Notes under the pieces: model-generated
Database searches by the model: none
What the model saw: the letters and a program-made list of their open reading frames with translations, nothing else
What the model was told of the DNA's origin: nothing
Origin: Raillietiella orientalis
Taxonomy: Eukaryota
Direction: 5' to 3'
Assembly (NCBI GenBank): GCA_036172245.1
Contig: JAYWIR010000028.1
Span: 2,914,001-2,967,228, forward strand
Length of the DNA stretch: 53,228 bases
Made by a program: the position numbers and the translations under genes
In this document: piece after piece, positions 1 to 53,228 of the stretch
Position numbering within the stretch: the stretch's first letter is position 1
Layout: every line of letters begins with the position of its first letter

Positions 1-3000
1 CGGCCAACTAGCGCCATTTCAGGAGAAACTCGGAAACCAAACGACTCAGTGGCGTCAGTTATCTGACGAACCCGCGACGCGTGGTGCCACGCGCGGAAAC
101 CTTAACCAGAAAGCCTCCGACCCGGGCAAAGCCTTCGCCTGTTTTCTTTGAAGACGTTTTGAAGACCGTTTTCTGACGCATGATGGATCAATCATTATAC
201 GGTTCTGTTTGTATGAAATATATGGTTTCCACATCCTCAATCGTTTTCACCTCTATTCAGTGGAACTCATTCTAGTTTCGTGGATATTACTCTAAAAACA
301 CCGTTGGAACAGAAATGGCCACACTATTTTTCAATCTTGGAGAGGTGTTCTTGGAAAACCTGGTTCTCATCTGGAAGCTGCAGAAAATTCCGGATGAAGA
401 TTATATCGTCCTGAGTCTTGAAGTACGTTGGCGAACCTCAGAATAGATGTCAGCATGTTTCGGTATGAATCAATGTTTGCATGTCTTCTAGGACTTAAGG
501 CACAAATAATTCAATGTTTCCTAGCTGGTCTGCGAAACATGATACACCTTTTCAGAGGAAGTCCCTTCTATCGCTACACTCAGGAGACTCGGAAGAATGG
601 TTTGCTGATGAAAAATCTCTTTAGAAAATAGGAATCTTTCACTTTCATGACAGAAAAGAAAGACTGCATCTTCACGTCGTTCATCAACAGCTTCTATCTC
701 AACTTCGTGCAGAAGATCGTGCAGTCTTTTTCTGAAAGTTCGAGGCTTGCACTTATGTGTTCCGTAGACATTCTACTCCTGTTTCGTGAGTGCAGTTTGG
801 TTTTGCAAGAAACACAATCATGGTCTTTTGTGCGAAGAAAAATGTAACTTTGACCTATAACTGGCAATACTGTTCTTGCGAAGAATGGTATGCTCTTCTA
901 ATGATTTGCCGAAATTCCATCTTTGTGGTACGCATATGGTCGGCAGAGCTCAGGGGCTTTCACGGAGGCGATTTTCGGTCCAAAGAGAGTCAATGAGCAT
1001 TTAAATCTTGCTATCCAGATTCACACTTCCCGGCTGGACGGCATTCACGCACAAGTGCACCACATGAACAGTTTTTCTCTTTCCTCTTCATCTGATGACC
1101 GTGTAAGGAATCCTCAGAAATTATCACCACAGAAACAATGGTTACGTTATAGCAAGAGAATACATCGGATAGCTTTACAGAGACATCTCTCAACAGTTTC
1201 AAAAATTATTCGTCTTTCTCAGTAAGTCGTTATCTCCTCTTTTTTCTACTCATAGTTCGTTCACTCTGCTTCCAACTTTTTGAAAGCTGGTCTGCAAGCC
1301 GATGGGTATCCCATACGCAGTTACCTATTTCTGTATTTACCTTTTGCATTGAGAGGATACCATCATCATCGAGCTTGTTGCTTATTTTTTTAAACAAAAG
1401 TACCGCAGTCACCGGCTAAAAACCTTAGCAAGTTACCTTTAGCTGCAGCTTCTATATGTTGTAGGAAGCGGCAAAGGGAAATCGGAGCTGTGAGCAACCG
1501 TTTGCATATCTTTACGACAAGAAAGAAAACATCATCAAGTCAGTCAATCGATGTAAATCAGGAGCCATATCAGAAAATGCTCTCATTTGAAATTACAATG
1601 CTCCATATACTTTGAATGAAAGCTTTTGCTACATGAGAAAACGTACTTCGGCAAAGTGGTCTCGTAACAGCAGGCCAAGTGAGGAACAGAGCAGTTGATC
1701 GAATCAAAAGAAACCGGAAAGTTGGAAGCAGGAAGAGGAAAAAACGAAAAGATCCAAACACAAAGAGAACACGCAGGGGATTCTCACCACATGCACGCAC
1801 ATATTAAAAGTCTGAAACTACATGAGCGTTAGAGTTTTCAGAGAACTAGGAAGTTCTATCTTTCTTTAAGGGTGCCATAAGTTTGACTCTGCGAATCGAT
1901 GCTCATTCGCTGTATCGTACTGCAGAGGAATAGAGTACCTTTCTTCCGTTAAATGCATGGCAGTCTTTATGCATCCGTGCTTTAGAGCATTTCCTTCTGT
2001 GAGTACTACAGTTATACAATGAGCAGTCCTTTTAAAGCAGTAAACGCGCAAGTCATGGAACATGCAAACGTTCTAATGAAATTTCCATTTGCAAAGTGGA
2101 ACACGGAGAGTTTTACACTCAGTAATGTAGAAAACTTCGAACTCTAAAGTGTGATTAACGAGCTGAAGAGTTGTGGCTGCAAATGATCCCAATGGAGAAC
2201 ACCGCTTCGGTACTTCATTGGTCAGCTATCGCATGTCTTACTTCTGAGTGTAAAATCTCACTACAGGGGAAAGAATGGTCTTACAGATATGAAGATACGC
2301 AAACCAGAGCATCAAGGGGTTGTCCTCAAATACATCACGCTGAATAGTTGTGAACATTACGCTGCTCCACGTCTTTCCGCATGAAGAGATGAATTGATTG
2401 TCTGATGCTGGGTTGAGTGCGGATCTAACCTCATGTAAAATTGCACTTATGTCATCCGCCACGCAGTGGAAACCTCGTTTTTTCGCAGAGTGGCGTGTTC
2501 TTACTAGATAACCTGATCCACAGGGAACAGTTCGGGTGCTATTTCTACCTTTCGAGAAGTGTTTTTCGTTTGCCCCGCTATAGAAAAGAGACCCTTGTCT
2601 CCGGACCAGCAGCGTTCAGGAGGATCATTCACTCACGAGTGCGCAGCACCTTTTTTCCAGTTTCTTTTCGTGATGTGGTTCCCTGGTGGCTAGGGTGCTT
2701 TGTCAAAATAGGCAGGAAGACAACGTCGGCGAAGTACCCCCCTGCAAAAGCACTAAAGGCGAAGCAGGCCGCTTTGCACGAGGAATGCCAAAAAGGCTAC
2801 CGTGTGAAGGGCGGGGAAGTCTTCCTTCCCACTCCATGCCTTACGAACGGGCAATATTGTAGCCGAGGAAGGCGACTGTGGCGCAATCATTGCTAGTTAA
2901 AAAGTCCAAGCGTGTGGAGGAATCTCGGTGCGGCAGCGTTGGCCAACTGAGAACCCTTCGCGGATGCGAAAATGCGAGCATATATAGCCCAAAGCTATAT

Positions 3001-3499
3001 ATGCCCACATTTTGCAAGAATATAATCCGTTGCTCTCTACGAAGTTAGTCACTTATTTATTAAGAGAGCGATCCCCGAGATCAACAGCGGCTTCACAAGG
3101 GTCGGAGATCGAGAAGGGCACCTGAATTTTCTTGTACTCCAGGTGAAGAACGAAGGCCAGAAGGTGATGCACATGTGTAGAACTCAAGCAGTGTCTTTTT
3201 CTAACGCCGTTGAGCATCAGAGGACAAAGCGTTTCCCACGGAGGATTAATCTTCCCTCCAACCTTGGAATGCCATCAGGTTCAGGGGGTCCGAACGCGAT
3301 TGAATGGCAGCGCTGGCGGACAATTCCACCAAGCTCGTCCTTCCGCAAAAAGTGAATCTTTTTGGAGCCTCCCATCCGCCTGCAGCGGAATGACTGCGGG
3401 CTGCATTTCGGTTAAATGGGACAGAATTCCCAATAAAATAAAAATCGATAGAAAAAACGCAGACATCTGGTTTGTGGGAAAGCCTGAAGTTTGCAGTGT

Positions 3500-4768
3500 C
3501 ATCCAAGGGAGGAGGGCGATTCTTGGATGAAGTCGCTTGCACATTCCATGGAAATTATGGATTCGTGACACATCCTGGATATCGCTACTCACTGGGATGA
3601 CTGGCCGTACGCGTCACATAGGGCCTACGCGTTGTTGTCGAACAACTCGAAAGGCCTAATGACTGCGCTGCTAGGCCGAGCAGGGGAATGGATTAACATC
3701 AACCCGACCTGGAGGAGAAAGCAACGGCTGGTGCACAAGCACAAGATCAAGATCGTGCAGAGAAGCAGGGAACTCTATCAGCAGGAATCCATCCTGGTGA
3801 TCCCGTGGATGCTTCCGATCCCTCCGGACACGAGAAGCTGGATCTAGCAGAGGCCCAGAGTTACCCTACAAAGAATCCAGGAATGGCGACGAGGAGGATA
3901 CCTACATCACACTCGTATACTTCGCTATATAGAGATGATGCTAGGTAGGTTCACCCATATGACCCGCGGAGTGTGGATAAAACACAACGACTTCGAGTGG
4001 TCTAGGGTAACCAAGATGAACCTCCGGAAGATTATCAAGGACCAGGACCAAGACACCAGTGCCCTCCAAGAAGCCGCCGATTGCTACGGCAGTGACAGGA
4101 TCAACCTGTTAGCGATCGGCACGACGCTCTGGAGGAGTGGACTTCCGCCGGACACCCAGGACAACCTCCTGATGTTTTATCATGGAGGAATCCAGAGCGG
4201 GTCTAAACTCAAGCACTTCACGCGAAGACGGGAAGATCAAGACTGCACGGCATGTGGAGACATTGATACAAGACTTCACGTCTCGACGTGTCCCACATTG
4301 CTACACGACTGGCTGATCCTGAAAAGGTTCAAAGGATTCAGCAACAAGTCCGTAATGGAAATCCTCGCTGGGATGTTACAGGGAGATGGTAATGTTCCCT
4401 GTTACAATCCTATGGTGAAGATGACCATTGCTCTCTTCATCACCGCCACACTTGTGCGGTGGTGGAAGATGAGGAAAGCCAGAAGAGCCGCACCCCCGAT
4501 GGAGATCCTACAAGGACTCATCAAGAAGAAAATCGGCATTAGGAACTGTAAACGACTTCATGACTGCACGTACCGATTCATCCTGAAGAGGATTGAAGAC
4601 GACGCCCGGGAACAAACATCTGGAAACCTATCCTGAAAGCAGAACTTGAAATACCCCCAAGCACTTCAAACTGATAAAGTGTTGGTATTTTGTATGAATG
4701 TGATTGTAGAATGAATGAGATTTAAAAGAAAATAAATTTACCCCATCCCTTGTGGGACTTGGGGAAAA
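3500..4768 (+). mobile_element. E2: 5'-truncated LINE of an unrelated family, inserted sense into ORF1 of E1 with a 16-bp TSD
   Basis: CTGAAGTTTGCAGTGT occurs at 3484-3499 and 4769-4784. The element ends AATAAA-TTTA-CCCCATCCCTTGTGGGACTTGGGG-AAAA. Confidence 0.85.
3935..4636 (+). pseudogene. C-terminal part of a LINE ORF2 (Cys/His zinc-binding domain) in E2
   Basis: CTACGDIDTRLHVSTCP matches the C-X2-C...H...C motif at the end of L1-type ORF2. Confidence 0.75.
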
Positions 4769-5661
4769 CTGAAGTTTGCAGTGTGGAGAAGCTGGAGTAG
4801 ACCTCAAGAGAAGGTGCAGAAGGATTCACTGCCATGATTTCAAGCAGTTTGAGAGCATCAGGCCGGCGTTCTCTGTCCCTGCAGCTAATGCCTCTTACCC
4901 CAATTTCAATAAGACTGCGATCCGCGATGCAACCTCGTGGCTCAAAAAGGGTGCTTCGCCAACAAGAAACCCCTTTGTGAAGAATTATAGAAAAATGTTG
5001 CGGAGTAAGACGCTTTCTAGACAACGGTGTCCAGGAAGGCAAGCAGCGTGCAATGGAGCGAGTTGCTCCAAATGCTCATAAAGAAGGGCACTCCGTACGC
5101 GAAAAAAACAAAGAATGCGATTCGTTGCAGAGAGAAAAAAGTGACCCATCGCTCCGCGCCAACCTTGCCGAAATACGAGGTCAACCTTTAGCGGTGCGAC
5201 CATGCTGTGCTTGCAGTCGTATCCTCAAATAATCAGCAAGGAAGCTCAACCGAGGACGCATGCGTATACGAGTGTTGCCTGAGGCAAAACACGGAAGACC
5301 GCAAGTCGTAAGCTACTGACTTAAAAATAAGTCGCATTCTGTTGCGATCGTATGCGATTCTCCGTCCAAAGCGCGAGGACTAAAGCACAGCACGCCAAGG
5401 CAAAGGGCAACAGAAGCAATGAAGCAGTAACACGGCATCCAAGTGGCGTGCAGCGACACTGTGAGAATGGTTGCAGAATAGTGTCATTACAGTATGCACA
5501 GACACGAGTCCAGTAGACGGAACCCTGCGTTCTATCGATACCGATCTGCTTCGGGATACGCACGAGATCTCGACATCTCAAGACTTCATCACGATGACGA
5601 TGAAGCTCGAGATGTTCTGCGACCGTTCTTCGCACCGAATGTATTCCCGACTGGTGCGGTG

Positions 5662-7377
5662 ATTAAACACCAGGGTGCGCCGGGGCGTTTATTCTTTTAC
5701 AGGAATCGATGCAGCCGAGGGCCCACCAATTCCAATTGTAACACTACAAAGATGGGGAGGGTTGAAGAGGTTCATCACGTCCAAGAAAGGAAAGCAAGAT
5801 GAAACAAAACTAAAGAAAAAAAAAACACAACAAATAATGAAAACAAACAAAAAAAAGATCACTTGGGGGAAGACAAGGTGTCATATTTCATGGTAGGTAA
5901 AGTCTTAGCATTTATTTAAGGATGCCGGCAAGCTCTTCCTCCTCTTTTTCAAAGTGTAGTCACTTCAAAGCTATCTGCAGGAAGCGGATGACACACAGGA
6001 CAGCTCCTCCTCAACTTCGACCTCTCTCGGCGTCGCATTTTGCTGCGACGACATTGTGCACGCGTCACATTGCTGCTATTGCAGCTGCGGGCGTCATAGC
6101 GCCCTGCACGGAGAGAAGCCTCAAAGAGTCTTTGGGATCGTCCACGGGTGCGGAAGAGACTCAAGAAACGTTCCCACAAGTCCCGGAAGAAAACGTACTG
6201 AAGGTGGAGGGAAGGTCTCCCTCTCTCCACGCCTGCCACAGTTTGGCGATGCGTTTCCCTCGTCCAGTGGTGACGGTGCACCTGGCACGTAAAAACACAG
6301 CGCAGTATCAGAAGCGCGGTTGTAGCGACTTGAGGAAAAGCAGCTCTCTATCCATGGAAACGGGGAGCACTTCCAACTCTCCGAACTGAATGGAAAAGTG
6401 TACGACACAATGTTTTAGTCCTTTCAAGGGGAATCTATGAGCGTCAGCCAGATGTCGCGTAGTTCAGCCACCGTTTGGCTTTCTGCGGACCAAGATCACG
6501 CAGGAAACCTCCCATTACGTCAGCTTACCATGTACTCTGAAACATAGGACACCGCTGCAGAGAGGATAATGGCTGCTGTTTATGCCAACACAATTAGCTC
6601 ACTACCTATCGCCTCCAATGTTCTTCCGATGTTCTTAAGCAACTCTCGGCAGCAGGTAACTTCCGATGTGGCATTGGTAAGCTGGGCCGACGTCCCAGTT
6701 TCTCCTGATGACAGTCCGGTGTGTTCGCAGGGCAGCAGAAAATACAGTGTTTGCTTTCACGAGAGCAGTAGCACACTGGAGAAAAAGGCAACAAGATGGG
6801 AGTCGGCGGTGGTGACACGCAAACAGGATTGGGACTTCATCACCGACCTCCAGCCGAGAGAGCAAACGTGCCGGGGAGCATAAATGGATGGCCTCGTTCT
6901 GTGCAACGAAGGCCATTCTTCAGGAGTTCAGTTGAACTTTTATGTGCTCCAGCGTGAGGAGTTGAAGTCCTCCGTCGCGACGAGGAATGCACAAGTCTTA
7001 ATCCCAATCGGAACCTCCCAATATTCCAGAGGTCTTTTCGAAGGAGGTCCTTTGTCTCTTTCACCATATCGGTGGGACGATACAAGCAAGGAGCATGAGT
7101 GGGAGGGCAGTGACCACAAAGGTGTTTCAAATGACGGCCCGTTCCGCCAACCAGAAGTTGCCTCATTCAAACGGGCCGAGCGCCTACTCTAACTTCTCGA
7201 GGCAGTAGGATCACGCTTCCGTAGGGGGAACGTCTCCCAGCGGCACGCCGAGGTATTTGGAGTACCCAGTCGTGGAAACTCCTAAACGGACCCAGTTCTA
7301 CTGTCCAGTCCACGTTGCACCGACCGAACACAAGTTCACTTTGTTCTGCTTAACTCCATGCCTCTTCTTCTGCTAAG
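5662..7377 (-). mobile_element. E3: degenerate LINE 3' fragment (ORF2 C-terminal part and 3'UTR)
   Basis: The minus strand gives SKYLGVPLGD (~7230-7260), KETKDLLRKDLW and HRHHWTR. The terminal AATAAA-hairpin is at 5666-5693. Confidence 0.75.
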
Positions 7378-8051
7378 TTTTTTACCTGGATAAGCCGGAG
7401 CTTTTATTTTTAAAATTCCAAATTGTTTGTTATATGGAAATCTACACTTTTTGGCATTGCTTCTTCAAAAACACATGGTTCTGTCAGTGTTTCTTAACTT
7501 GTCGTTACCGACGCGCTGGCCAGTATGGTACTTTCCGCGGGCTAAAGGGACGGGAAAAGCAAAAGAAAAAGAAAAAAAAGAAAAAACGCAGGGGGCACGA
7601 AGTTTTATGAGGTAAGGAGTAATGGGATGAAATCACTGCTCGCCGGAAGGAGTCCTCTGCATCCGGTTTCTGATGCAGGAAAGTGCCGGCTGAATTGCCC
7701 TCAACCGGGCCATCGGAATGCCTTCTCCATGGAAAGGACCGCCCAATGAATGGCATTCGCCTTATATGTACTCGCCTCGATGCATTTCACTTTTCCAGTA
7801 TTTCGCGTATGCAGCGGAAAACCGCAACACACGCGGCTGCTGGCAGGACGTTCCGCATCATGAGACGACGGAAAATATCTTCTGTGTTGTCCACAGGAAT
7901 GTTCACAATCGACGAGAGTCGATCCCATATAGACAGAAGGGCGACACACTCGATAAGCAGGTGGGGGAAGGTTTCCCTTTCCCCGCAACTTGCACAATTG
8001 GCATCCATACTCCCTACCTGGCACAGTTGGGGTTTACGCTTCCCCGTGTCC
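7378..8051 (-). mobile_element. E4: LINE 3' fragment (ORF2 Cys domain and 3'UTR)
   Basis: CASCGERETFPHLLIEC (ORF 7787-8008). The element ends AATAAAAGCTCCGGCTTATCCAGGTAAAAAA at 7408-7378. Confidence 0.8.
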
Positions 8052-9590
8052 TTCTAGGGAGCGGAGGTGGTTTGGTATTGCTCAGCGGTCTAGTTAGTGC
8101 GAAGGTTTTCGGTGGTTTTGTCTGGTATGTAGGAGCGCCGGTGTCCCATGGCAAAAATGCATGCGGACACCGCGATGGAAATCGTGGGAGAAGAGGCGAC
8201 TTGCTCTCCACCACCCATGAAAGTAAGGGCGTCCGCCCTCACGGAATCCGAGGCACTTGCCCCAACGGAATCGAAGGCAGCCGCCCCTTCGCGACCCTCT
8301 TCGACAGCGGCGAGGAGTTGGAGTGCCGTCGTTGCTGCACCATCCCCGGCTGCAGTAGCGGAGCAGACTGCCTACAAGGACAGCAGCTACAAACCGTCGC
8401 TGATCTACAAGGTAGGTAGTGTGTTCGACGAGAAAATTGCACGCTCCTTTGAAATGGAGCTGCAAAAACAGAATGTGAGAGAGGAAGACCTCGAGGGCCC
8501 TCCGTCCTTAGTGGGGGGCAGCGAGTTGAGCTGACTTGCAGAGAGGCAAGTCTGGCGGGAGAGACGAATACCATGAAGCAGGCCGTAAGGAGCCAGATGC
8601 CAGTCCCTAAGCCATCCCAACAAACGTCGGTTGAGAGCACTCCCGACGACGCTGGCGACGGCGAAGGCTGGCAGACGGTACAGCCCAGAAGAAAGCCCGG
8701 GAGTCCCGAACGAAGCGTGGGGAAAACAAAAACGCAGCGCGGAAAACCGTGCAGCGAAAAACTTCGCGCTTGTTCGGTAAAATTAGAGCGTGTGGAGGCA
8801 CTCGATGCCGCCACCGGGGGAGCAATCCCCCCTTTCGTGTCCGCCGAAGCCGCGACGGTTGATGGCGAACACTCTGGGGAAACAGAGGGAGAACCGCGCG
8901 CCGCGCTCGACGCGATCGAGGAGGCCGCCTTCCAGCAGGTGGTGGAAGAACTCGCGGCTGAACTGCAAGGCCGTGAGAAGAACTCCCTGAAAGGCTTACG
9001 AAGGCCGGCCGCGAGGAAGGGTCCGGATGCAGGTGAGGCAGAACCGGATGCCGGAAGTGCGTCCTCCTCAACGGAGGCGCCACCAAAGAAGACGGGACGC
9101 AAGTCCCAGAATCCCAGGAGGCGCATACGGATCAAGAAGGAGGAGGACGAACTGGTACCCAAGGGGGAAGCCAGGAGCGTAAGAGACGAGGGTAGGAATC
9201 TCTCATTTCTTGACACCGTGCAGCTGGCGATCCCCATGGAGGAGGAAGTACAGGTGGGTTAAACCCCCCTTCCTCTGCACGGCTCTGACGAAGACTCGGC
9301 CACCATGGAGGAGGGAGAACCGGTGCGAGGTGATCCCATTCCTCTATCCGTCCCGCCCGACCAGGTGGCGGAAGCCCCGTTGCCACTTTCCCAGGAATAA
9401 CACCTGGGCTCGCTTGTCGCCGTCGATTACGGGCGGCCTGCTGGAACGTCAACGGGCTGCGCGATGACGGCAACAGACGGGACACGGCCGCCACCCTGCG
9501 TGACTTCGACCTGGCGCTCCTGCAGGAGATCCACGTGATCACCGCGGAGAACGCCCAGTAGATCAAAAGGATCGCAGGGGGGCGGCTGAT
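8052..9590 (+). mobile_element. E5: subfamily C LINE 5' part (internally deleted ORF1 and start of the endonuclease)
   Basis: ORFs 8148-8534 and 8573-9262 align with ORF1 of E21 but lack the knuckle region. ACWNVNGLRDDGNRR...LLQEIH follows at 9400-9590. The copy is cut by the 3' end of E6. Confidence 0.85.
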
Positions 9591-9819
9591 TGTCACCCGG
9601 GTGCGCCGGGGCGTTTATTATAAACTATCCGGAAACAGGGTTCCCGGACAAAGGGGAAAACAAGAGACGAAGGGGGTGGGATCCCGACACGCAGGTCGGT
9701 ATGCCGAAAGTCCGGAACGGGAGGGAAGGGACCACAAACACACTACTATATAAAAAAAAAATAAAAGAAGAATATGGAGGACAGGAGACAGGGGTCTTTG
9801 GTAGGTCCGTTCCTTATTT

Positions 9820-12800
9820 TCAAAACCGGCGATGGATGCCGGCGATCTCTCTCCTTACGCCCTGTGGCAGATATGCCCACTGGGCAGCCGACGACATGTT
9901 TGCGCTGGCTAATCCGGTGGGCTGACGAAGGATGGCTAGCTTCTCCAACTCTCGGTGGGCCTTGTCGATGGCGCGGGTGCAACACACGGTTGCAACGACA
10001 GCACCCAATGACAGGCCGCCTGGCGTGAAGAAGCAGCGCATCAAGTACTTTGCGGTGTCCCCCTGGTGCCGGAGAGCTGAGGACAGCCTCCGACAGAGTC
10101 CTAGAAGGGCACCGCAGTCCAGGAGCAGGTGCGGGACCGTTTTTACTTCCCCGCACCGCTTACAGTTTGGGGAGACAACTCCCCCGGAAACAAGGTTCGT
10201 GCGCTGGTTGGAGTGAAAACCCCGATGCACCAGCATAATCACGTCCTGCTTCCACGAAAAAGGGAACACAGAAGTGTTCAAACACGAGGAAGGAACCACA
10301 AGTTCTTCAAGGGGCACACTCAAGTGTTCGCTCCACCGAAGGAGTCCCTTCGGAACGTGGCGAGGTGTGGCGGCGTCCGCCAGCTCGCAAGTCTTCCAGC
10401 CGCCAATAGGTCGCGTTGTTCCTGCGATGGTGCAGGCGACCTCCCATCTCGCCGGCTCGCAACTGTCATCTCTTGCCCTGAAGGCTGACAGTGCGTCGGC
10501 GAGGGGGGTGACGGCCACGCAAGTCAACTTCTCCTGGCTGTTGCACACCTCATCCACCGTGCAGTACGGGGAGAGGTGAGCGCAACGGAGTTCCAGGAGG
10601 GAAACGTCCTGGTGCTTTGCCCAGCCATGCAACGGTTCCTTCCGCCAAACTTCAAAGTTCGTTGGGCGGCAGGAGATCCATTCCTGGGCTTTCAGGAGCC
10701 GGTACAGCGGTTTCAAGGGGAAACCGAAGCTTCTCGTAACGCGCTCCGTGTGCGGCCGTAGCGACAGAAGTCCATCGCTGCCTGTGCAGCGCCGCAGAAG
10801 CAGGCGCGCGGGAACGCACCACGGAGTGGACCAAAGGTTGGCGCACAGGGCCAACATCCGAAGCTGCACCTGCAGCTCGATTCTCTCCAGCGTCAGGATG
10901 CCTAAGCCAAAATCCCGACGCGGAGCCGCCAGGTCTTTGAGGCGGATCCTGGACCTCGCAGGACCCCACAGAGCGTTCCTCAACAGGCTGTGCGCCTGGA
11001 GCTTATCCGAGTAGGAAGGCGGGCAAACAAAAAGCAGGAGGCGCAAGAGGGGGGCAACGAAAGTGTTCCATATCGTGGCCCGCTCCGGCAGGACGAACCT
11101 GCCATGGTGGAACGGGCTCAGGGCATTCGAAGCCTTCCGAAGGCAGTCCGACCACACTTCCACTGGGCTGATGTTCCCCAGCGGAACGCCCAGATATTGC
11201 ATGGAGGAAGCGGTCGGGATCCCCAGGCGGATCCAGTCGGACTGCTCCTCCCATGCCGCACCAATAGGTACGACCACGCTCTTGCTCCGGTTTACGCCCA
11301 TGCCCGCTCCCCGGCGAATCAGCTCGAGGAAATCCTCGAGACTGGACGCCGGGGTGGTCATGGGTAAGAGGAGAAGCAGGTCGTCAGCATAGGCCGCCAC
11401 GGACGGCGTTCCTGGACAAGAGCTCGGCAGGTTGGCCAGCGTCAGCCTGTACGCCCTCAGCACCAACTCAAAGAAGATGCTGAAGAGCAACGGGCTTAAG
11501 ATGCCGCCCTGCCTGATGCCCCGACGCATCGGCACGCCGTACACGTGGCAGCCGCTAAAAGAGATGGAAATGAGCGCGTGGCGCAAGCAAGCGCGCAAAT
11601 ACGCCACGAGGTGCACCGGGACACCAAGGCGTTACAGGAGCTCCAGCAGGAGATCCTGATTTACGGAATCGAACGCCTTGCGGAGATCGACCGCGACCGC
11701 CAAGGCACCCGGCGCTTCCCCAGGCCGAATGCAGCGACGCCTAGCCTCGGCAGCCGCAGATGCGGTTGCCTGGCTGTCGTGCGCCACGCAGCGTTGCAGC
11801 TCGAGCCACGTGCGCGCAAAGAACAGGTTCGCCTCCATGGACCGCCCGGGAACAGCGTAAGACTGCTCCGGACTTACCACGGATCCAGCGATCCTGCCCA
11901 GGCGCGCGACCCACAGCCTGGAGAACAACTTGACGTCCGCATTCACCAAGGTGATGGGACGCCAGTTGCTTAAATGGCGCATGTCTCCGCCTTTCGGCAA
12001 CAGACGCACCCTTGCTGAGCGAAACGAGGCCGGGACATTGCCTGTCTCTCGCATCAGCGCAGAAAGCCTCAGCACCAGGGGGATTAGTTCCGGCGCGAAG
12101 CACTGGAAGAACTTCGCAGGCAGACCATCCTCACCTGGCGCCTTGCGCTTCTTGAGGCCCGCTATGGCGGAAGACACTTCTTCCGCCGTGAACGGCAAGT
12201 CAAGAGTGGCGCGTTCCTCCTCGTCGACCGCCGGGAAATCCGCCGGCAGAAGCAGCTCCGAGAGACTGCGTTCCGTCGGCTCCCGAGCGTACAACGAGAA
12301 GTAATAGCGCTTTAGGAGGCGGCGAACTTCTGCCGCGCCTGAGCACTCCAGGCCCTGGTCGTCGAGCAGACAAGCTGCTCCTGACTGTCAGACCTGGCGC
12401 TCGGCCTTGGCCTTGTACTCCGCAAGGTACCGGACGTCCGGGCATCGGAAGAATTGGCGGGCCTGCAGAAACTCTCTGCAGTTAACCACGCCTTCCCCGA
12501 AGCCACGGGGAAGCAGGCGCAAGGGGAACCGGCTGCAGAACTCGCGGACCGATCTTTTCAGATCATTCCAGTCCACGAGCTCTCGAGCGGCAAAGGTCCG
12601 GAGATGCTAGCGGAGGTGCTCCGCAGCCACCGGATTTCTCAACCAGTCGGCCGGCAACCTCCAGACGTGCGTCGGAGGGCCCTTGCCAGGCGGGAGTAGC
12701 TCAAACTCCAACCTGTAGTGGTCGGAAAGCTCGGACGGCACAGGACCTCTTCGACCCACCCGACAATGCAGGTGATCGTCCAGGAACACATGGTCCGGCA

Positions 12801-13383: not shown

Positions 13384-13388
13384 TGCTG

Positions 13389-21221: not shown

Positions 21222-21306
21222 TCCCTTCTTGTTCCCTCCCACCCTTTGTTTCTTTTTGTTTAGTTTTTTTGTTTTTCCCCTTTCCCCTGCTGCCTTCGTG
21301 GACCGT

Positions 21307-21438
21307 ACCGGTCTAGAAACCGGTGAATTGGCAGGCTCCGTGGTTCTTAGCTTCTGGCTGGAGCATTGCCACAGCCATTAATACTTACTTTATAAAGTTT
21401 ATTTTTTAATAAACGACCCGGAGAAATCCGGGTGAAAA
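21307..21438 (+). other. Representative LINE 3'-terminal module: upstream hairpin, AATAAA, terminal hairpin, four A
   Basis: ACCGGT-CTAGAA-ACCGGT (21307-21324), AATAAA (21408-21413), ACCCGGA-GAAA-TCCGGGT. Homologous terminal modules occur at twelve other element ends. Confidence 0.75.
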
Positions 21439-40530: not shown

Positions 40531-40533
40531 GCA

Positions 40534-43385: not shown

Positions 43386-43413
43386 CCGCCTTCTGCGCTC
43401 TAAGGCGGACGTG
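43379..43413 (+). promoter_or_regulatory. Putative internal Pol II core promoter of E17 (Inr-like CAGT and DPE-like GGACGTG)
   Basis: The A of CAGT is at 43380 and GGACGTG starts at 43407 (+28). The motif recurs at the 5' ends of E9 (21464), E10 (28436, minus), E21 (48103) and E13 (GGATGTG, 35869). Confidence 0.6.
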
Positions 43414-44516
43414 TTTTCTCGGTGCTCGTTGTGCCAGGAAGTCTCCCCCAGTGCAAGCGTCGTGTGGTTCGGTGGTCGATCAGGCAGCGATGCCTGACGC
43501 GATCACCAGGGATGGCCAGGAAGCAGCCGCAACACCGCCCATAGAGGCGATGGAAAGCCAGGGGGCGGCAGCAACGTCGCCCCAGAGGCGATGGAGGTGG
43601 GGGCATCCGCCCTTACAGAATCGGTCCCCGCTACAGCGCATGAGTAGAGTGCCGTTGTGACGGCGCCATCGCCCGCAGCCGGGGCGGAATTGTCGGCCTA
43701 TGTAGAGGAGGGGTACAAACCCTCATTGTTCTACAAGGTAGGCAACCTATATTCTTTAGAGAGCGCGCGCACCCTTTCGAAAGGCATGCGCGCTCTCGAT
43801 GTGAAAGTGGAGGAGCTCAGCGCTATGACCATCCGCAGCGGGGGTCAGAACGTTGAGGTCATCTGCAAACAAGCAGAGTTGGCCCAACGACTGCTTAAAA
43901 CCCCCGTTGTGATGAGGACGCGCAGGCTCCTCCCCACTTCGGCGAACCGCAGCATGGTGGTCCACCTGTTAGGCGTAACCGCGCGAATGCGCAAACAACA
44001 GGTTCGCGCCGCTCAAGAACAATTTGGAACGATACACGCGCAGTGGACGAAAGTTAGTTATTTCGAGGACTACACGGGGCTGCAACACGGCCTCACGGCT
44101 GCGCGTGTGAATGTTCGGCAGGGCTGCACTCTTCTCCACAAACTGGTGGTCGGCGGCGAAACCGTCGACCTCTGGTATGTAAGGAAGCCGAAATACTGTG
44201 GCTTCTGCAATTCGTCGGGAAACTTCGAAAAAAGGAGCCCAACGTGCAGTGCCAAGCATGCGGCACAATGGGGCACACGAGGGAGATGTGCACAAAAGCA
44301 GCAGTGCGGGTGGTTTCCAAGAGAAACCCCAGAAAACGCGCACGGCTTTTGCAGAAAAGGCTGGCGGCGAAATCTGCGGCGAAGGCTGTGCCACCCGCGC
44401 CGAAGGCCCAGGCCGCACCCGAGACCCCGACGAACAACGCCGAACAAGTCGAGGGAACTAGCCAGGAGCCTGGGTGGCTGGTGGCAACAGCCAAAAAAAC
44501 AAAAAAAGAAAGAAGA
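43379..44516 (+). mobile_element. E17: subfamily A LINE 5' part (5'UTR and most of ORF1)
   Basis: Colinear and closely similar to 21439-22570 of E9; ORF 43657-44529. Confidence 0.9.
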
Positions 44517-44519
44517 TAT

Positions 44520-45010
44520 GTCAGAGTAGTCTTTAGTGCTGCAACAGGAGAGCCGAATCCTGCCATTTCAAGGAGAGGGAGGAGGTGTTCATTAGTACCG
44601 GGGGCCACTTCAAACGTTCAATGGGAGCGTCAAGCAGCGCGCCTCAACGTAGAAGTATATGGGGAGGCGTACTCGGGGTCGCAGCGTCTGTTAACTGGCC
44701 CGTCTTCCACTCTCTTATCTTCTTCTGCTTTCCGGAGATTGTCACTGTAACCTATCACTTCGCCGCAACATCGCTTTTTGGATCTTACATCAGGGAGGGC
44801 AACGCAGCAGCAAGGTAGGTTCTTCCTGACCACGCTCCTTTCTTTGGATCTTCCAATATCTCGCGGAGCGTGCAACTTCTGTAACCCCGAAACAGGAACC
44901 TTCGTTCCTGTTGGGAGCGTTGGATGCCGAACTGTCCCCGCGTTCGAACGGTTTCCTGCAATCAGGGACTACCGATCAAAGGGCGACAGGTGACAAATCC
45001 ATGGATTTTC
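44520..45010 (-). mobile_element. E18: inverted internal ORF2 fragment of subfamily A with no terminus
   Basis: The reverse complement matches E8 ~20325-20805, e.g. CAGGAACGAAGGTTCCTGTTT and GAGCGTGGTCAGGAAGAACC. Confidence 0.8.
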
Positions 45011-45019
45011 TGTGTTAGC

Positions 45020-45736
45020 GCGAAAGATTAGGAGGGCGGTTGTACTGGCGATGCGGCGCCCGCAACACTTGTGGGGTCGCGTTCTTCCTAGAGCCAGCCA
45101 TTAACGCGGCCGTAAAGGACGTGCGCTTTGGGGACGACGGACGGATCGGCCAACTGATTCTCAGATGGTCCGATTCGATCGACCTCATCGTCACCAATGT
45201 GTACGCTCCTAGCGGTAAACAGGGATACCAGCAGCGCAACGCGTTACTGGAAACCTTAAAGCGCGTATGGCTGGTGGACGCGGACGTGCGAAAGGCGCAT
45301 CTGATAGCAGGGGATTTCAATGTCCGTCTGCTCTCAGATCAGCCCGGAGCACAGGGGAACGCGATCAACGAGTTGTGCGCCGCCATGCGCGCGCGCAACT
45401 TGTTGACAGAAATAAGCGGGATGGTCAACAGCGTGGACCACGTCTTCCTCGACCAAGACCTGTACACACGGGTAGGAAAACGAGGGACACTTGGATCGAC
45501 GCTGTCGGACCATTCCCGGTCAATATTCGAGATGCGCCCGCGCGACAAGGGACCGCCATCCAGGGATTGGCGTATGCCAGGGGACTGGACGCGCCTGTCA
45601 GGAGCGAAAGAACATCTTCGCGAATTCCTGCGAGGCGTCACCCTCCAGAGTGTCGCGGATTGGGACCTATTTAAGGACTCGGTCCGGGAGTTCTGCGAAC
45701 AGTTCCCAGTGCAACGTCTGCCCCGGGGATTCGGCG
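45020..45736 (+). mobile_element. E19: internal endonuclease fragment, C-like
   Basis: The ORF from 45040 has NVYAP, GDFN, VDH and SDH, ending at LPRGFG. Confidence 0.85.
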
Positions 45737-48100
45737 TTGCCACCCGGGTACGCCCGGGGCGTTTATTTATAAAAACTCTACAATTGCGGTACCAGGCCCC
45801 GCTCACGGCCTTATGCACGGGACCTACCGGGACGCCGGGACGCAGCCCGGCGTGGCACTCCCCGGCAGCGAAAGGGGATGGGGAAAAACAAAAATAAAAA
45901 CAAAAAAGCAAACAAACAAGTGAGGTTGGGGGGCAGGGAAGGGATCACTGTTCGCTGAGAGGAGGGCCCATCCGTTGAAGGAAGCCCTCGAGGTCCATCC
46001 GTAGATTCCCCAGTTGGGGCCATCCAGCAGCTCTCCGCAAGAAGCGTTGGGCATATGGGATGACATCCCTCGCGTGTTGACCCACTCCTTCCTTGTTGGT
46101 GTCGCTCCATGCCGCCACGATGCCTCGGACGCAGCACAAGGCTGCAAGGGCTGCGGCTGGCTGCAGGGCGTCCTTCACGAAGAGGGGCCGAAGAACGTCT
46201 CTAGGGGAACTGCCCGTTGGGAGACCGAGGATCGTCCCAAACCGTTCCCAAAGGGGACGAAGGGCAGCACAGTCCACAATAAGGTAAGAGAGCGATTCCC
46301 GCTCTCCGCACCTGACACACGCAGGATCCACAACTCCTCATGTCCAGTGAGAGCGGCGTGCGTTGCAGGGTAAACCCCAATGCAACAACAGCAACGCCGA
46401 CTCTTTCCACTTAAGGGGCAGGATCCTGGATTCCTGAAGAAGCGGGGGCCACTTCAGCACATCCATAGGGATGGCCAGCAGCTCGCCCCATCTTCTTAGT
46501 CCTCGCGGCTGGACGCTCGGTGTCGTGGCGTCGGCCAGTTCTCCTGTTGTCCAGCCGCTGATCAACTTCTCGCGTCCCTCGATGCAGCAGGAGACTTGCC
46601 ACCTTGGCGTACGGCTGCTGCGAAGTGCCCTCTTCAGGAAGGGCAGCGCCGTAGCTAGGCAGGTCGTCTCTGCCCACGTGCATCTTGCTGGACTCTCCAG
46701 GAGATTCCGCAGCGTGCAGCGGGCGTAGGGGCTGCATCGGAGACGATTCCACGTTTCGTGGCTCCTCTGGTTAACCGCTGCCCACGTTCCAATATTCTCC
46801 TCCAGCCAGGCGGGGGAGTTGGCGGGGCAGCAAACCATCCAGCTGTTCTCCTTGGCCAATGTTGCCATGCGCCCGAGCAGTAGGCCGCATCTTCGCATCT
46901 TCCGGCCACGGCTCAGAAGAAAAGACGCGAGTCCATCGCACCGGGACACACGGCTGGCCAGGAGGCGGGCCGGAGTGCACCAAGGGGTGCTCCACATCTT
47001 CGCTGCGATGGCGAGGGTTCGCCACCGCAGCTGCTTCTCCACGCGCTCCAGCGTCAGGAGGCCAAGACCGCCGTCCCGACGCGGAGCGCACAAGTCCTTC
47101 AGAGGGACTCGGGGCCTCCCCTTGCCCCAAAGGGCGATACGGAGGAGGTCCTTTGTCCTCTTCTTCGATTCCACGGTGGGGGGGCAAACAAAAAGCAAGG
47201 GGCGGAGGATGGGGGCCGCGAAGGCGTTCCAAACCGCGGCCCGTTCCGGCAAGTGAAACTTGCCTTCCAGGAACGGGCCGATCGCCGTCTCGACTTTTTG
47301 GAGGCAGCTGGACCACGCTTCCGCAGGGGAGTAGTCCCCCAACGGCACACCAAGGTACTTGAAGCACCTCGCCGTGGGGATCCCCAGACGGACCCAGTCC
47401 TGCTGCAATGCCCACGCCGCACCTATTGGCACAACCGACGACTTCGCCCTGTTAACCTGCAGTCCGGTCCCGCGGCTGAGCTGATCGAAGAAGTCTCCGA
47501 CCGCCTTTGCCGGGGTGGACATTGGTAACAAGAGCAGAAGATCGTCGGCGTACGCTGCTACGGCGGGCGTGCCGGGGCACGAGCTCGGCAACGGGGCCAG
47601 AGTCACCCTGTACGATCTCAGCACAAACTCAAAGTAGGTGCTGAAGTGCAGAAAGCTGAGACTATCTTCCTGCCTTATGTCCCGCCGCAACTGCACGCAA
47701 TGCACCTTGTGACCGCTGAAAGAGACGGTATTTATTGCATTCCGCAAGCAAGAGCACAGGTAGGAAATCAGGGAGGGTGGGAAGCCCATGCGACTTAGGA
47801 GCTCCAAGAGGAGGTCCTGGTCTACATATTCGAACGCCTTGTGGAGGTCGACTGCCAGCGCTAGGGCCCCCTTTCTTGCCCGTGGTTTCCTTGCTAGCCC
47901 GGCTGGCGGCCCCAATGTGGGGTTGCCGACTTTCCCTATCCCTTTCTTCTCTCTTCTCTGCAGGTGCACCCATGTGCTTGCGAAGAAGAGGTTGGCATCC
48001 ATACTTCGACCGGGAACAGCATAAGTCTGCTCCTGGCTAATTACGGATTCTGCCACCTGCCTTAGACGCGAAGCCCATAGCCCTGCTATTAACTTGGCGT
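45737..48100 (-). mobile_element. E20: subfamily C LINE 3' part (RT from AKLI onward, Cys domain, 3'UTR)
   Basis: DLHKAFE, YADD, KYLGVPLG, CVRCGERES. The element ends AATAAACGCCCCGGGCGTACCCGGGTGGCAA. Confidence 0.92.
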
Positions 48101-48302
48101 GCGGACGTGTTTTTGTAGCGCTCCTCCGTGCCTGGTGTAAAGCGGTTGATTTCGATTGTGTTTGTGTGTGAAGCATCTGCGGTGTCCAATGGCAGAAATG
48201 CCTGAGGACACCGCGACTGATATAGGAGGGGGAGAGGCTTGCTCCTCTCCCCAACCCACAAAGGTGGGGGCAACTGCCCCCACGGAGGCGACGGCAGCCG
48301 CA

Positions 48303-48470
48303 CCCCTGGAAAAGGGGGCAACCGCCGCCTCGGAAGTGAGGGCAAAGGCACCCTTGAAAAAGGGAACAAAAGCCCCGCTGGAACAGGGTGCAACCGCCTT
48401 CTTGAAAAAGGGGACAACCGCAACCCTGCAAAAGGGCGCAACCGCCTCCTTGAAAAAGGGGGCACCTGCA
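48303..48470 (+). repeat. Seven degenerate 24-bp tandem units in ORF1 of E21
   Basis: PLEKGATA, ASEVRAKA, PLKKGTKA, PLEQGATA, FLKKGTTA, TLQKGATA, SLKKGAPA. Confidence 0.85.
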
Positions 48471-49898
48471 CCCTCGAAAGCGTCTTCGGCATCGCCGAAG
48501 ACCTGGAGTTCACTGGCTGCAGCCCCATCTCCTGCAGCCCTCTCCGAGCAGAAAGCCTACCTGGAACAGGGATGCAAGCCGTCCTTGATATACAAGGTAG
48601 GCAATCTGTTTATCGGGAATACCGCTTGCAACTTCGAAAGGGAGTTGCAGCGGTTGAATGTAAAAGAGGAAGTCCAGGAAGGTCTTTCCGTGTTGAGTGG
48701 TGGTCAACGGGTGGAGGTGACTTGCAGAAATGCAAGCCTTGCTAGACACCTCCTAAATACGCCAATCACACTAGAAGGACGAAAGGTTTTCCCATTAACG
48801 GAGGATCGCTCCGTGGTGACGCACCTCACGGGAGTCACCCTCCGCATGTCAAAAGCCGACGTGCAAAGGGAACTCGGAAAATATGGAACGGTTCACGCGC
48901 TATGGAAAAAGCCCAACGTCTTCCAGAGTTACGGAAGGCTGTTTAGTGGCATGGCTGTTGCGCGTGTAACCGTCCACGAAAACGGTGGGCTACCCCACAA
49001 ACTAGACGTCGGCAACAAGACAGTCGACGTCTGGTACGTGGGCAAGCCCAAGTACTGTGGACACTGTGATGCCACAGGGCATCTGAAAAAGCGGTGCCCC
49101 CACATCCAGTGTTTCCACTGTGGAGAGAAGGGCCACCTCCGCAAAGTGTGCCCGAAACGCGAACCCCCGGCTCCCGCTGCCTTGAAAAAGGCCAAAGGGA
49201 AACGCGCGGGGGCTACGGAAAAGTTTGCGAAGGCACCCGCGAGACAGAACCCACAGCCGGAGCCCGAGCCCGTGCAGCAAACGTTGGTCGTGGAATCTAC
49301 CAACGACGCTGAAAAGAGCGAAGGCTGGCAGAAGGCGAAGCAGAAAGCGAAGAAAACAAAGAAAACCGAAGGGTCGACAGCGGAACCCGCGACGTCTCCT
49401 TTAAATAGGAGACAACGCCGCGCGTACATCCGCGAATGTTCGGTCGCTTTGGAGCGTGTGGGGGTACCCGGAACCGCCACCGGGAGAGATATCCCCCGCG
49501 TAGACGCCGACGATAACGCGATCACGGAAGGCGAACCCTCTGTGCAAACAGAGGTTGAACCGCGCGACGCGCTCGCCTCGATCGACGAGGCCGCCTTCCA
49601 GCAGGCGGCGGAAGAGCTCGCGGCCGAACTCGCCGACCGTGCGAACGGCGCGCAAAAGAGCTTGCGAAGGCCGGCCGCGACCAGGGCACCTCCGACAGGT
49701 GACCACGACCCGGATGCCGGAAGTGCGTCCTCCTCCACGGAGGCGCCTCCGAAGAAGACTGGACGGGAGTCCAAGAATTCCAAGAGGCGCATCCTGACGA
49801 GGAGCGAGGCGGACGCACCGGCAGCCGAGGGGGAAGCCGGCAGCGTGGGAACGGAGGGAGGAATTTTCCCACCCTCCGCCACCGAGCAGCCGACCACC

Positions 49899-50135
49899 CC
49901 ATGGAGGAGGGGGAGCAGGTAGGGCATTGCCTCCACCTTCCACCGGTGGAGCCTGCAGAAAAGATGGTCATGGAAGAGGGGGAGAAGACAGCTGAGAACC
50001 GCTCCCCTCTGCCGTCCAACGCAGCCGAGGAATCGGCCCCCATGGAAGAGGGGAAGCAGGTGCGTGAAGCATGCTCCCTTCAACCGTTGCGGTCCGCCGA
50101 GGAATCGCCCCCCATGGAGGTGGGAGAACCGCTGG
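49899..50135 (+). repeat. About four degenerate ~70-bp units (MEEGE...) at the ORF1 C-terminus of E21
   Basis: CATGGARG recurs at ~49900, 49969, 50041 and 50114. E5 has only two units (~9235 and ~9303). Confidence 0.7.
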
Positions 50136-50399
50136 GCGGTGCCCCCATGCCTCCATCCGTCCCACCCGACCAGGTGGCGGGAGCCCAATTGCCACTTTCC
50201 TGAAAATAACACCTGGGCTCGCCTGTCGCCGTCGATTACGCGTGGCCTGCTGGAACGTGAACGGGCTGCGCGACGACGGCAACAGACGGGAAACGGCCGC
50301 CACCCTGCGTGACTTCGACCTGGCACTCCTGCAGGAGATCCACGTGATCACCGCGGAGAACGCCCAGGAGATCGAAAGGATCGCAGGGGGACGGTTGAT

Positions 50400-51477
50400 T
50401 GTCACCCGGGTGCGCCGGGGCGTTTATTATAAACTATCCGGGAACAGGGTTCCCGGACAAAGGGGAAAACAAGAGACCAAAGGGGTGGGATCCCCGACAC
50501 GCAGGTCGGCATGCCGAAAGTCCGGAACGGGAGGGAAGGGACCACAAACACACTACTATATAAAAAAATAAAAGAAAAATGTGGAGGGCAGGGGACAGGG
50601 GTCTTTGGTAAATCCGTTCCTTCCTTTTAAAACCGGCGATGGATGCCGGCGATCTCTCTCCTTACGCCCTGCGGCAGATGGGCCCATTGGGCAGCCGACG
50701 ACATGTTTGCGCTGGCTAATCCGGTGGGCTGACGAAGGATGGCCAGCTTCTCCAACTCTCGGTGGGCCTTGTCGATGGCGCGGGTGCAACACACGGTTGC
50801 AACGACAGCACCCAATGACAGGCCGCCTGGCGTGAAGAAGCGGCGCATCAACTCCCTCGCGGTGTCCCCCTGGTGCAGGAGAGCTGAGGCCAGCCTCCGC
50901 CAGAGTCCTAGAAGGGCACTGCAGTCCAGGAGCAGGTGCGGGAGCGTTTCCACTTCCCCGCACCGCTTACAGTTTGGGGAGACGACTCCCCCGGAAACAA
51001 GGTTCGTGCGCTGGTTGGAGTGAAAACCCCAATGCACCAGCATAATCACATCCTGCTTCCACGGAAGGGGGAACACAGAAGTGTTCAGACACGAGGGAGG
51101 AACCACAAGTTCTTCAAGGGGCACACTCAAGTGTTCGCTCCACCGAAGGAGTCCCTTCGGAACGTGGCGGGGCGTGGCGGCGTCCGCCAGCTCGCAAGTC
51201 TTCCAGCCGCCAATAGGTCGCGTTGTTCCTGCGATGGTGCAGGCGACCTCCCATCTCGCCGGTTCGCAACTGTCATCTCTTGCCCTGAGGGCTGACAGCG
51301 CGTCTTCGAGGGGGATGACGGGCAGGCGGGTCCACTTCTCCTGGCTGTTGCACACCTCATCCACCGTGCAGTACGGGGAGAGGTGAGCGCAACGGAGTTC
51401 CAGGAGGGAAACATCCTGGTGCTTTGCCCAGCCATGCAACGGTTCCTGCCGCCAGGCTTCAAAGTTCGTTGGGCTAC
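50400..51477 (-). mobile_element. E22: 5'-truncated (1078 bp) subfamily B LINE inserted antisense into the endonuclease of E21 with a 13-bp TSD
   Basis: GGGGACGGTTGAT occurs at 50387-50399 and 51478-51490. The sequence is closely similar to E6 9591-10666. Confidence 0.95.
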
Positions 51478-53228
51478 GGGGACGGTTGATGTGGCAATGC
51501 GGCTCCCGATACACCTGCGGCGTCGCGTTTTTCATGAAACCGGCGGTCGACGCTGCCGTAAAGGGCGTGCGCTTCGACGAAGCCGGTCGTGTCGGCCAGC
51601 TGATTCTCAGGTGGTCCGACACGATTGACCTCGTCGTAGCAAACGTATACGCCCCGAGCGGTTATAACAGGTAACGGGAACGCCCGGCGTTCCTGGAAAG
51701 CCTGGAGCACGAATGGCTGGTGGAAACGAACGTGCGCGTGGCTCACCTGATAGCGGGAGACTTTAATCTCCGCCTGCTATCAGGTGAGCCACACGCACAA
51801 GAACGGACGGCTAACGAGTTGTGCGCCGCCATGCGCACGCGGAACTTGTTAGGGGATCTTTCGGAAATGGTCAGCAGCATCGATCACGTCTTCCTAGATG
51901 TCCACCGCTGCTCCCGGGTCGGCAAACGGGGGAAAGTTGCGTCGGAACTGTCTGACCATTACAGATTAATATTCGAAATGTGCCCGCGCGAAAAGGGACT
52001 TCCATCCAGGGCGTGGCGGTTGCCTGGGGACTGGACGCGCCTCTCAGAAGCGAAAGAACACCTTCGCAAATCCCTGAGAGGCGTCACCCTCCGCAATCTC
52101 GATGATTGGGACCTTTTTAAGGCCTCGGTCCGCGAGTTTTGCGAGGAGTTCCCCTTGCACCTTCTGCCCCGGGGATTTGAGAAGGGGATCCGCAACGATC
52201 GAGCGTACTTGTATGCCCGTCGTTACGCGAGGACCCCCCAATGTCCGTCGCCTGGCAGAGTACCGAGCCGGGGCCGAACGTCAAGCCTGGCAATCCGGAT
52301 CGGCCAGCTTCCTGGACGACTAGGGAAGGGAGCACTCGGCTCCGGCTAGAATACGGCACCTCGTGCGGCGTTATTATTCCCTTCTTTCCGGCAGGGCACC
52401 CCTGGTCCAAGAAGTTCCTCGGCGCTTGCTTTTGAACGGGGCCCCGGCAATAGGGGAGGAGGAGAAGGAAAGCCTCGACGAGCCTTTTACCACCGGCGAA
52501 ATTATCGCCGGTATCAAAAGGCTCAAGAGGCGGAAAGCACCAGGGGAGGACGGCCTGCCTGCGGAGTTTTTTTAATGCTTCGCGGCAGAGTTAGCATCCC
52601 TGGTGCTTGAGTTGACAAGGCTGATCCGAGATGAAGGCGATGTACCCGCCTGGTTTCGGTCAGCCAGAGTGAGGCTCCTTCCGAAAGGAGGAGACCTCAG
52701 GAAACTCAGGAACTGGCGTCCGATCACAATTGTGAACACGGACGCCAAGTTGATCGCCGGACTGTGGGCTTCGCGTCTTGGGCAGGTGGCCAATTTCATA
52801 ATTAGCCCGGAGCAGAATTACGCTGTTCCCGGGCGAAGTATGGAGGCCAACCTCCTCTTCGCAAGCACATGGTTTCATGTTCAGTGTAGTAAAGAAAAGG
52901 AAGAGGGAAGGATTGGCAGCCCCGCTTTGGGGGCGTCAGCCGGGCAGGGACAGGACTTCCAGGTGGGGAAGGGAGCCTTAGCGATCGCAGTCGATCTGCA
53001 TAAAGCGTTTGACTGCGTGGAGCAGGATCTCCTGCTGGAGCTCCTGGGACGCATGGGCTTCCCTCCTTCCCTACTGACCCACCTGCGCTCTTGCTGACGC
53101 AGCGCGCTGATCAATATCTCTTTCAGAGGTCAAATGGCGTACGGCGTGCCGGTACGGAGGGGCATACAGCAGGGCCACAGCCTCAGTCCCGTGCTCTTTA
53201 GCACCTACTTTAAGTTGGTGCTTAGAGC

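Follow-up and report, generated by a model that had tools for sequence, protein, structure and literature searches.

In several green algae, the centromere DNA has been proposed to consist of clusters of long interspersed nuclear elements (LINEs) nested in their own kind. The closest described systems, Zepp and the Zepp-like (ZeppL) elements, are L1-clade LINEs that target existing copies and form LINE-dominated clusters, one per chromosome; cluster sizes range from 1.5 to 42 kb in Coccomyxa and from 51 to 320 kb in Chlamydomonas, and the clusters are richer in GC than what surrounds them, at 61% for Zepp against 53% for the genome (PMC3446292, PMC8226300, PMC9940879). Chlamydomonas ZeppL clusters are bound by CENH3, according to a preprint (10.1101/2025.03.28.645958). 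Here we describe a stretch of 53,228 nucleotides from Raillietiella orientalis (GenBank assembly GCA_036172245.1, contig JAYWIR010000028.1, positions 2,914,001 to 2,967,228 of the forward strand; hereafter the window), most of which consists of L1-like LINE copies joined to one another. This island was probably built by serial target-primed insertion of new copies into resident ones, with an antisense and a site preference, and later underwent at least one rearrangement and the copying of one junction. The window supplies these junctions at nucleotide level: target-site duplications (TSDs), a recurrent site in the second open reading frame (ORF2), the antisense bias and the copied junction.

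Between 2464 and 53228 the window holds 22 elements, 11 per strand, and no other type of sequence was detected there; an earlier note, made from the letters alone, had likewise proposed about 22 nested copies in a LINE-only block. Copies are lettered from left to right as E1a, E1b and A to AA, hyphenated letters denoting one copy (X-Y-AA), and positions within the element ('model') are coordinates of a profile built from the copies. Searches with nhmmer, run first with copy J and then with a profile of all matches, gave 30 profile hits that tile 5654-53228 on both strands, and tblastn with ORF1 and ORF2 of J agrees. Pfam, nhmmer and tblastn detected no other transposon type in 5654-53228. The locus is like Zepp (Chlorella/Coccomyxa) and ZeppL-1_cRei (Chlamydomonas) in that new copies enter existing copies and the block is GC-richer (∼0.58-0.62; 0.55-0.64 over all that lies beyond ∼8 kb) than its left flank (0.42 in the first 2 kb); up to ∼8 kb, copies A and B included, GC is 0.48-0.51. 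The CpG observed/expected ratio is 0.8-1.25 in all 26 segments, the oldest copies included. Since this ratio is kept while old copies lose GC (0.48-0.51 versus ∼0.6), decay is GC-to-AT biased and not CpG-specific.

Ordinary two-sided insertion of LINEs into LINEs is proven by four closed inserts with exact TSDs of 12-16 nt; the earlier note had likewise counted four TSD-closed inserts. At the left edge, E1b (3500-4768, +) is a 5′-truncated sense insert in E1a and is flanked by the 16-nt TSD CTGAAGTTTGCAGTGT at 3484-3499 and 4769-4784. Copy J (22649-28442, −), a near full-length element of 5794 nt, lies antisense in I-K-M with the 12-nt TSD CGTTGTCGTTTA. The same host contains L (29493-31860, +), 5′-truncated (model 3279 to the 3′ end) and in sense orientation, with a TSD of 13-14 nt, (A)TTTCAACGTTCGC. 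Around these two inserts the host I-K-M (+, family II) is visible as its 5′ part I (21462-22648), its middle K (28443-29492, to model 2202) and its last visible part M (31861-32853, model 2184-3185), which is ended by N. Finally, Z (50400-51477, −), 5′-truncated and 92-95% identical to E, lies antisense in X-Y-AA with the 13-nt TSD GGGGACGGTTGAT. The host here is X-Y (48101-50399, +; family III), which runs from its 5′ end to model 1913, has an open ORF1 of 590 aa and continues as AA (51478-53228, +; model 1873-3654) up to the right edge of the window. In run X1, a contig lacking Z connects 50390 with 51492 and has 10 different letters at the target site; it looks like an uninterrupted relative of X-Y-AA with a differing site sequence.

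Outside the closed inserts, the copies have a one-sided polarity. The only + copy to reach its 3′ end is G-H (16604-21438; family II, 5′-truncated at ∼model 441), in which no TSD was found, and none of the other nine − copies reaches its 5′ end, their right ends lying at model 343 to 4925. The polarity described in the earlier note therefore holds, together with its single exception, 'E8', which is G-H. Decay is ordered in the same direction. In-frame stops per residue fall with nest level from left to right (Spearman rho −0.77, p 3e-4, n=17 elements), from 39 in 5407 aa in the outer eight elements to 10 in 4248 aa in the inner nine (p 8e-4; without A, p 0.011). The outer copies are thus older, as nesting or any left-to-right growth predicts, and the earlier picture of decayed outermost copies around an inner one with a near-intact ORF1 is borne out by this gradient and by the open ORF1 of X. 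With newer copies inside older ones, the window looks like the left half of a deep stack, and the right halves of the open elements would lie beyond it. Under random attachment, none of 20000 simulated clusters of 22 elements reached a nest depth of at least 12, as against 0.7% of those of 50; so deep a chain suggests that fresh insertions were the preferred targets, unless the cluster as a whole is very large.

The same polarity and left-to-right age order are predicted exactly by a second account, in which growth was one-directional and right halves never existed. Copies would have joined the array one by one, either at a DNA end that was broken or terminal or through repeated template jumping by the reverse transcriptase (RT). 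Each segment would then begin at the 3′ end of its template, so that an RNA 3′ end would give a − copy starting from the tail and a cDNA 3′ end a + copy starting from the 5′ end. Two junctions resemble the tail-onto-truncated-copy joins expected of such growth: A|B, where the 3′ end of B (7377-8041, −; model ∼4925-5494) adjoins the right end of A in the same orientation, and E|F, where F (14750-16599, −; model 3691 to the 3′ end) lies in E, again in the same orientation. Zepp itself reportedly accumulates at new chromosome ends, to judge from the title of a reference in PMC3446292. Against this, two-sided TSD insertion works in the same block in four cases, and the window contains no telomere repeat array, with TTAGGG occurring twice and TTTAGGG not at all. 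It also counts against such growth that, to our knowledge, chains of ∼15 jumps or additions in which the strands alternate are undescribed, and we regard this account as distinctly improbable.

Pairwise identity and trees divide the copies into three families, with A, B, F, E1a and E1b as old outliers. Family I comprises J, E and Z, with Q and L as distant members; family II comprises G-H, I-K-M, O-P, R, T and U; and family III comprises N, S, W, V, X-Y-AA and C-D. Tree support is 0.996 for R with K, M and H, 1.0 for the S+W+N clade and 1.0 for U with H, and V is placed with AA across a split of 0.997. N, at level 8 of the stack, shares 88-90% identity with AA, at level 16, and is less similar to S and W. 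A lineage of family III thus remained active, and changed little, over many insertion steps. The idea that elements never hit their own family was dropped, because the N/AA identity merges groups 2 and 4.

Two further features, of orientation and of site, suggest that insertion was not random. Fifteen of 19 host-insert pairs are antisense and four are sense (two-sided p 0.019); with the H|I junction counted as sense, the figure is 5/20 sense (p 0.041). At model 2612 in ORF2, the 3′ tails of S (41284-43404, −; family III, 3′ end to ∼model 3400) and W (45737-48100, −; family III, model 3168-5492) adjoin R (40521-41283, +; family II, model ∼1840-2612) and V (45014-45736, +; family III, model ∼1890-2612) at the same position, within at most 5 nt, and H, M and AA are uninterrupted there. 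Because R and V differ up to the junction and their relatives are uninterrupted, these are two independent hits and not one duplicated composite. At model 1913, E (9591-14749, −; family I, model 343-5519, ORF2 in one frame with five stops) in D and Z in Y are joined at one nucleotide, Z being a short closed insert and E running to model 343. The host of E is C-D (8061-9590, +), which starts at its 5′ end GCGGAGGTGG and is ended by E at model 1913. A hot zone at model 1840-1920 holds five breakpoints within 90 nt out of 5535 (P 0.003). The chance of two coincident pairs among ten 3′ junction sites is P 7.6e-4, and that of one pair among nine sites is P 0.035. Site fidelity is nevertheless partial: several sites are used, and only the recurrence at model 2612 is robustly independent. 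A self-immunity of family III at model 2612 was considered and rejected, because N has nearly the same sequence there.

Two junctions in the island do not fit a simple nest. The first is T|U (44517/44522). T (43405-44521, +) starts at its 5′ end, contains ORF1 only and is of family II type. U (44522-45013, −) is an old internal fragment of family II (model 4411-4896) without either end, and it carries five stops in 151 aa, as against none in 442 aa of its neighbours T and V (p 0.001). Since U is old and has no 3′ end, it cannot be an insert in T, and T|U is a deletion or rearrangement. The single nest of ∼17 levels in the earlier note accordingly gives way to two chains joined at T|U, one of 13 levels (E1a > A > B > C-D > E > F > I-K-M > N > O-P > Q > R > S > T) and one of four (U > V > W > X-Y-AA). 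We also rejected the possibility that U|V is the same event as Z|AA, as U groups with H and Z with E.

The second such junction is H|I, where the + copy I follows the 3′ tail of the + copy H, with 23 nt (21439-21461) between the tail and the 5′ end of I. This remnant is of the same type as the end of S next to T, and shares with it extra bases that have no counterpart in W, N, E, J, H, L, Q or AA. The I locus has therefore received a copy of the S|T junction, either from a T-like source whose transcript began 23 nt upstream (5′ transduction) or through duplication of DNA. The earlier statement that every junction joins LINE to LINE is upheld in that all 12 intact 3′ ends adjoin LINE sequence, with the reservations that T|U is not an insertion junction, that at H|I a + copy follows a + tail and that ∼30 nt at 35835-35866 are unassigned.

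Such junctions are what would be expected if the island were a passive repeat graveyard, in which LINEs, perhaps the sole active transposons of this genome, pile up in a tolerated gene-poor region, segmental duplication, gene conversion and deletion shape the array, and each recurrent junction is the copy of a single event. Copying is shown for S|T and the flank of I and is plausible for D|E and Y|Z, T|U at least is a rearrangement, and the blocks 40616-43395 and 45073-47843 align across their junction at 72.7% identity. The two hits at model 2612 fit this poorly, as R and V differ in family right up to the junction and the copies nearest to each carry no interruption at this site. Nor does passive accumulation predict the antisense excess or the near-absence of closed inserts within long copies (none in J, 5.8 kb, or G-H, 4.8 kb), and other transposon types were not detected in 5654-53228. 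We consider a passive origin of the island unlikely.

A number of observations nonetheless weigh against serial, site-preferring insertion. The right halves lie out of view, so that we infer the nesting of 15 open elements from geometry and age alone, and the depth of the stack becomes less telling in a larger cluster, as at least 12 levels arose in 7% of simulations with 100 elements and in 34% with 200. Neither T|U, which is not an insertion junction, nor G-H, which lacks a TSD, fits a simple nest, and the copying of S|T to the I locus shows that junction copying occurs here. The site at model 2612 is not always used: N, a relative of S and W, has near-identical sequence there and yet was not hit. 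At model 1913, the identity of D and Y, 55-79% further away, reaches 96% over the last ∼230 nt before the junction, a level like that of the inserts E and Z (90-99%); D|E and Y|Z may thus be one event later copied, or may share ancestry through conversion or flank-guided homing, and the pair is ambiguous. The + copies inserted in − hosts show no recurrent site besides the copied S|T one. All statistics, moreover, come from a single window.

Assembly error is a further source of apparent junctions, as false joins could have linked dispersed copies. The region consists wholly of repeats, and the analysis worked from the assembled sequence. The copies are, however, 65-95% alike, which makes collapse unlikely, and false joins would be expected at homologous positions in the same orientation, not between intact 3′ tails and antisense ORF2 with TSDs. 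A contig of run X1 (383 nt, 12 differences) also spans P|Q at 37715-38090, with ∼30 nt on the short side. Run X1 holds 0.20 of sampled words, and most of its contigs are 90-95% alike to the window (172 of the 251 that were aligned), with 11 at 99% or more; the run represents a relative or other copies and is not independent proof of the assembly. False joins are hardly credible as the source of the pattern.

In the mechanism that we propose for serial insertion, LINEs would enter earlier LINE copies by target-primed insertion, making target duplications of 12-16 nt. Insertion would tend to be antisense and to fall on a small number of fixed ORF2 positions, and the youngest copies, whose sites are still intact, would be the preferred targets. 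For the choice of site we can only guess at a sequence preference of the endonuclease, at read-through RNA of the 3′ flank that pairs with the same site elsewhere, or at both; in SART1, read-through flank RNA reportedly helps precise initiation. A bolder version is that LINE families home antisense to fixed ORF2 positions of the youngest copies, each disabling its predecessor. The result would be an onion with the youngest copy at its core, a self-renewing LINE-only domain and a possible centromere in a lineage unrelated to green algae. We offer this version tentatively, as a conjecture that may well fail. It is the recurrent ORF2 site and the antisense bias that merit a genome-wide follow-up. 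Should the site preference prove general across the genome, this would be a LINE whose specific target is the coding sequence of another LINE.

Comparison with known systems sets these features apart. Zepp clusters are described as tandem arrays, mostly of 5′-truncated 3′ ends (PMC8226300); here, by contrast, antisense pairs number 15 of 19 and full 5′ ends are present in six copies. Three families are co-resident in the window, unlike in Zepp, and the likeness between the two systems is one of behaviour. Zepp also has poly(A), which is missing here. The suggestion in the earlier note of a Zepp-like system with several subfamilies is accordingly upheld for self-insertion and for the presence of several families, and not for the arrangement, which is mostly inverted with full 5′ ends, or for the ends, which are without poly(A). 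Like the target-specific APE LINEs (the Tx1 group, R1 and SART/TRAS), the present elements have an APE endonuclease. Those LINEs each enter a repeated target, be it rDNA, snRNA genes, telomere repeats or another transposon, at a single fixed nucleotide, whereas here the target is ORF2 of the element's own type and fidelity is partial. With human LINE-1 they share the ORF2 order of APE, RT and (here putative) Cys-rich tail, a similar TSD length and 5′ truncation; they differ from it in an ORF1 with CCHC knuckles and no Transposase_22, and in a hairpin and short A-rich tail in place of a long poly(A).

To judge from their predicted proteins, the elements are APE-type, L1-like LINEs, with both the endonuclease and the RT that mark the L1 superfamily. 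An element is ∼5.8 kb long and has two ORFs, ORF1 with CCHC knuckles and ORF2 with an APE endonuclease, an RT and a putative Cys-His tail, in that order. Among the 18 longest stop-to-stop ORFs, Pfam placed RVT_1 above its cut-off in five and below it in one, the APE endonuclease in one, zf-CCHC in one and zf-RVT below its cut-off in two; eight had no match. The endonuclease (PF03372, apurinic-type endonuclease; 55.5 bits, cut-off 24.5) is in the ORF 25419-26462(−) of copy J. The two zf-RVT matches, at the C-terminus of ORF2, scored 20.3 and 20.5 bits, under the cut-off of 27.5, and a CxxC...H...C motif is visible in the translations. J is near whole, with an ORF1 of 664 codons (two stops, CCHC knuckles) overlapping an ORF2 of 1204 codons (two stops). 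The closest solved structure to the RT is human L1 ORF2p (E 2.2e-13), and silkworm R2 is next (3.7e-13).

This LINE lineage has almost no relatives in public protein data. In a collection of 5.8 billion protein clusters, the matches listed for the RT include one close protein, 60% identical and encoded on a 2.9-kb contig; the remaining ones listed are ∼24-38% identical and are L1-like proteins of plants, ticks and fish. Named matches among the 120 listed are only ∼24-30% identical, with named L1-like proteins at ∼28-30%, and no chlorophyte protein is named among these 120, which come from a search with a word prefilter. ORF1 has a single relative in the same collection, at 50% identity, and no Transposase_22 match in Pfam. 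No relatives of the AA protein were found in viral contigs (19 pattern matches) or in metagenome contigs (224 pattern matches), an Atlas search gave only generic RVT_1/zf-RVT clusters, and Rfam gave no match in the window. A scan of metagenome contigs for the 3′-end motif returned 11 loci, none of which encodes a relative by tblastn, and these were set aside as chance matches.

The ends of the elements are uniform. All 12 intact 3′ ends carry AATAAA, a short GC inverted repeat (hairpin) and an A-rich tail of 5-9 nt (e.g. TGACAA), and long poly(A) is absent from all 12. The hairpin is no more stable than shuffled sequences in six of eight folds (z −0.3 to −1.6; z −2.4 in the other two), so its conservation is positional and not energetic, and an energetically stable hairpin was rejected on the same ground. 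In the old and divergent E1b, the hairpin at this position differs in sequence. After the A-rich tail, six of the 12 3′ flanks begin with TC (e.g. TCAACCG, TCAGCCG and TCGACCG), a modest hint of a nick-site preference. Six copies start at the full-length 5′ end with the common motif GCGGACGTGTTT. Chlorophytes use TGTAA rather than AATAAA, and the presence of AATAAA at every 3′ end argues mildly against a green-algal host.

The remaining copies complete the map. At its left end, 2464-5653, the island has weak sequence support and is better supported by its structure, in which the 16-nt TSD brackets an insert ending in AATAAA and a hairpin. The left part of E1a (2464-3499, +) is an old low-GC (0.50) copy with the 5′ region and ORF1, matched weakly by the ORF1 profile at 2915-3184 (iE 2.6e-4) and 3354-3500 (iE 1.9e-3). 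An ORF in E1b (3848-4633, +) has the CxxC...H...C motif and a match to the ORF2 profile, at its C-terminus (iE 0.011), and is followed by AATAAA, the hairpin and an AAAAC tail. The right part of E1a (4785-5653, +) has no significant match of its own and is placed by the TSD; it is ended by the 3′ end of A. A itself (5654-7376, −) is old, with model 3789-5502, its 3′ end at 5654, an nhmmer E of 1e-268 and eight stops in 176 aa. Further inside lie N (32854-35834, −; family III, model ∼2471-5535), O-P (35867-37744, +; family II, 5′ end to model 1889, ended by Q) and Q (37745-40520, −; distant family I, model 2860-5497). P-Q-R was rejected as a closed insert, since P and R are too different in their overlap. 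Between N and O, ∼30 nt (35835-35866) are without a match; within them, GGTAAAATCAGCG is reminiscent of an element tail with a TC-type flank, and the stretch may be the remnant of another junction.

The left flank (42% GC) has no significant LINE match except a faint 3′-end-like one at 1255-1424 (+; nhmmer E 2.9e-4), and none of its 31 ORFs has a Pfam match at E 0.01 or better. Near 1390-1430, the series AAACAAAAG...CCGG...CTAAAAAC resembles the motif of AATAAA, hairpin and tail. The stretch 1255-1424 may be a much older, AT-decayed copy to the left of the interval given in the earlier note. No satellites were found in the window beyond short repeats inside ORF1. These are tandem repeats with units of 24 and 48 nt, in up to 7.5 copies, in the N-terminal part of the X ORF1 (48266-48473). 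C (8233-8287) and T (43515-43595) have shorter forms of them, so that this repeat-expanding segment of ORF1 varies between copies.

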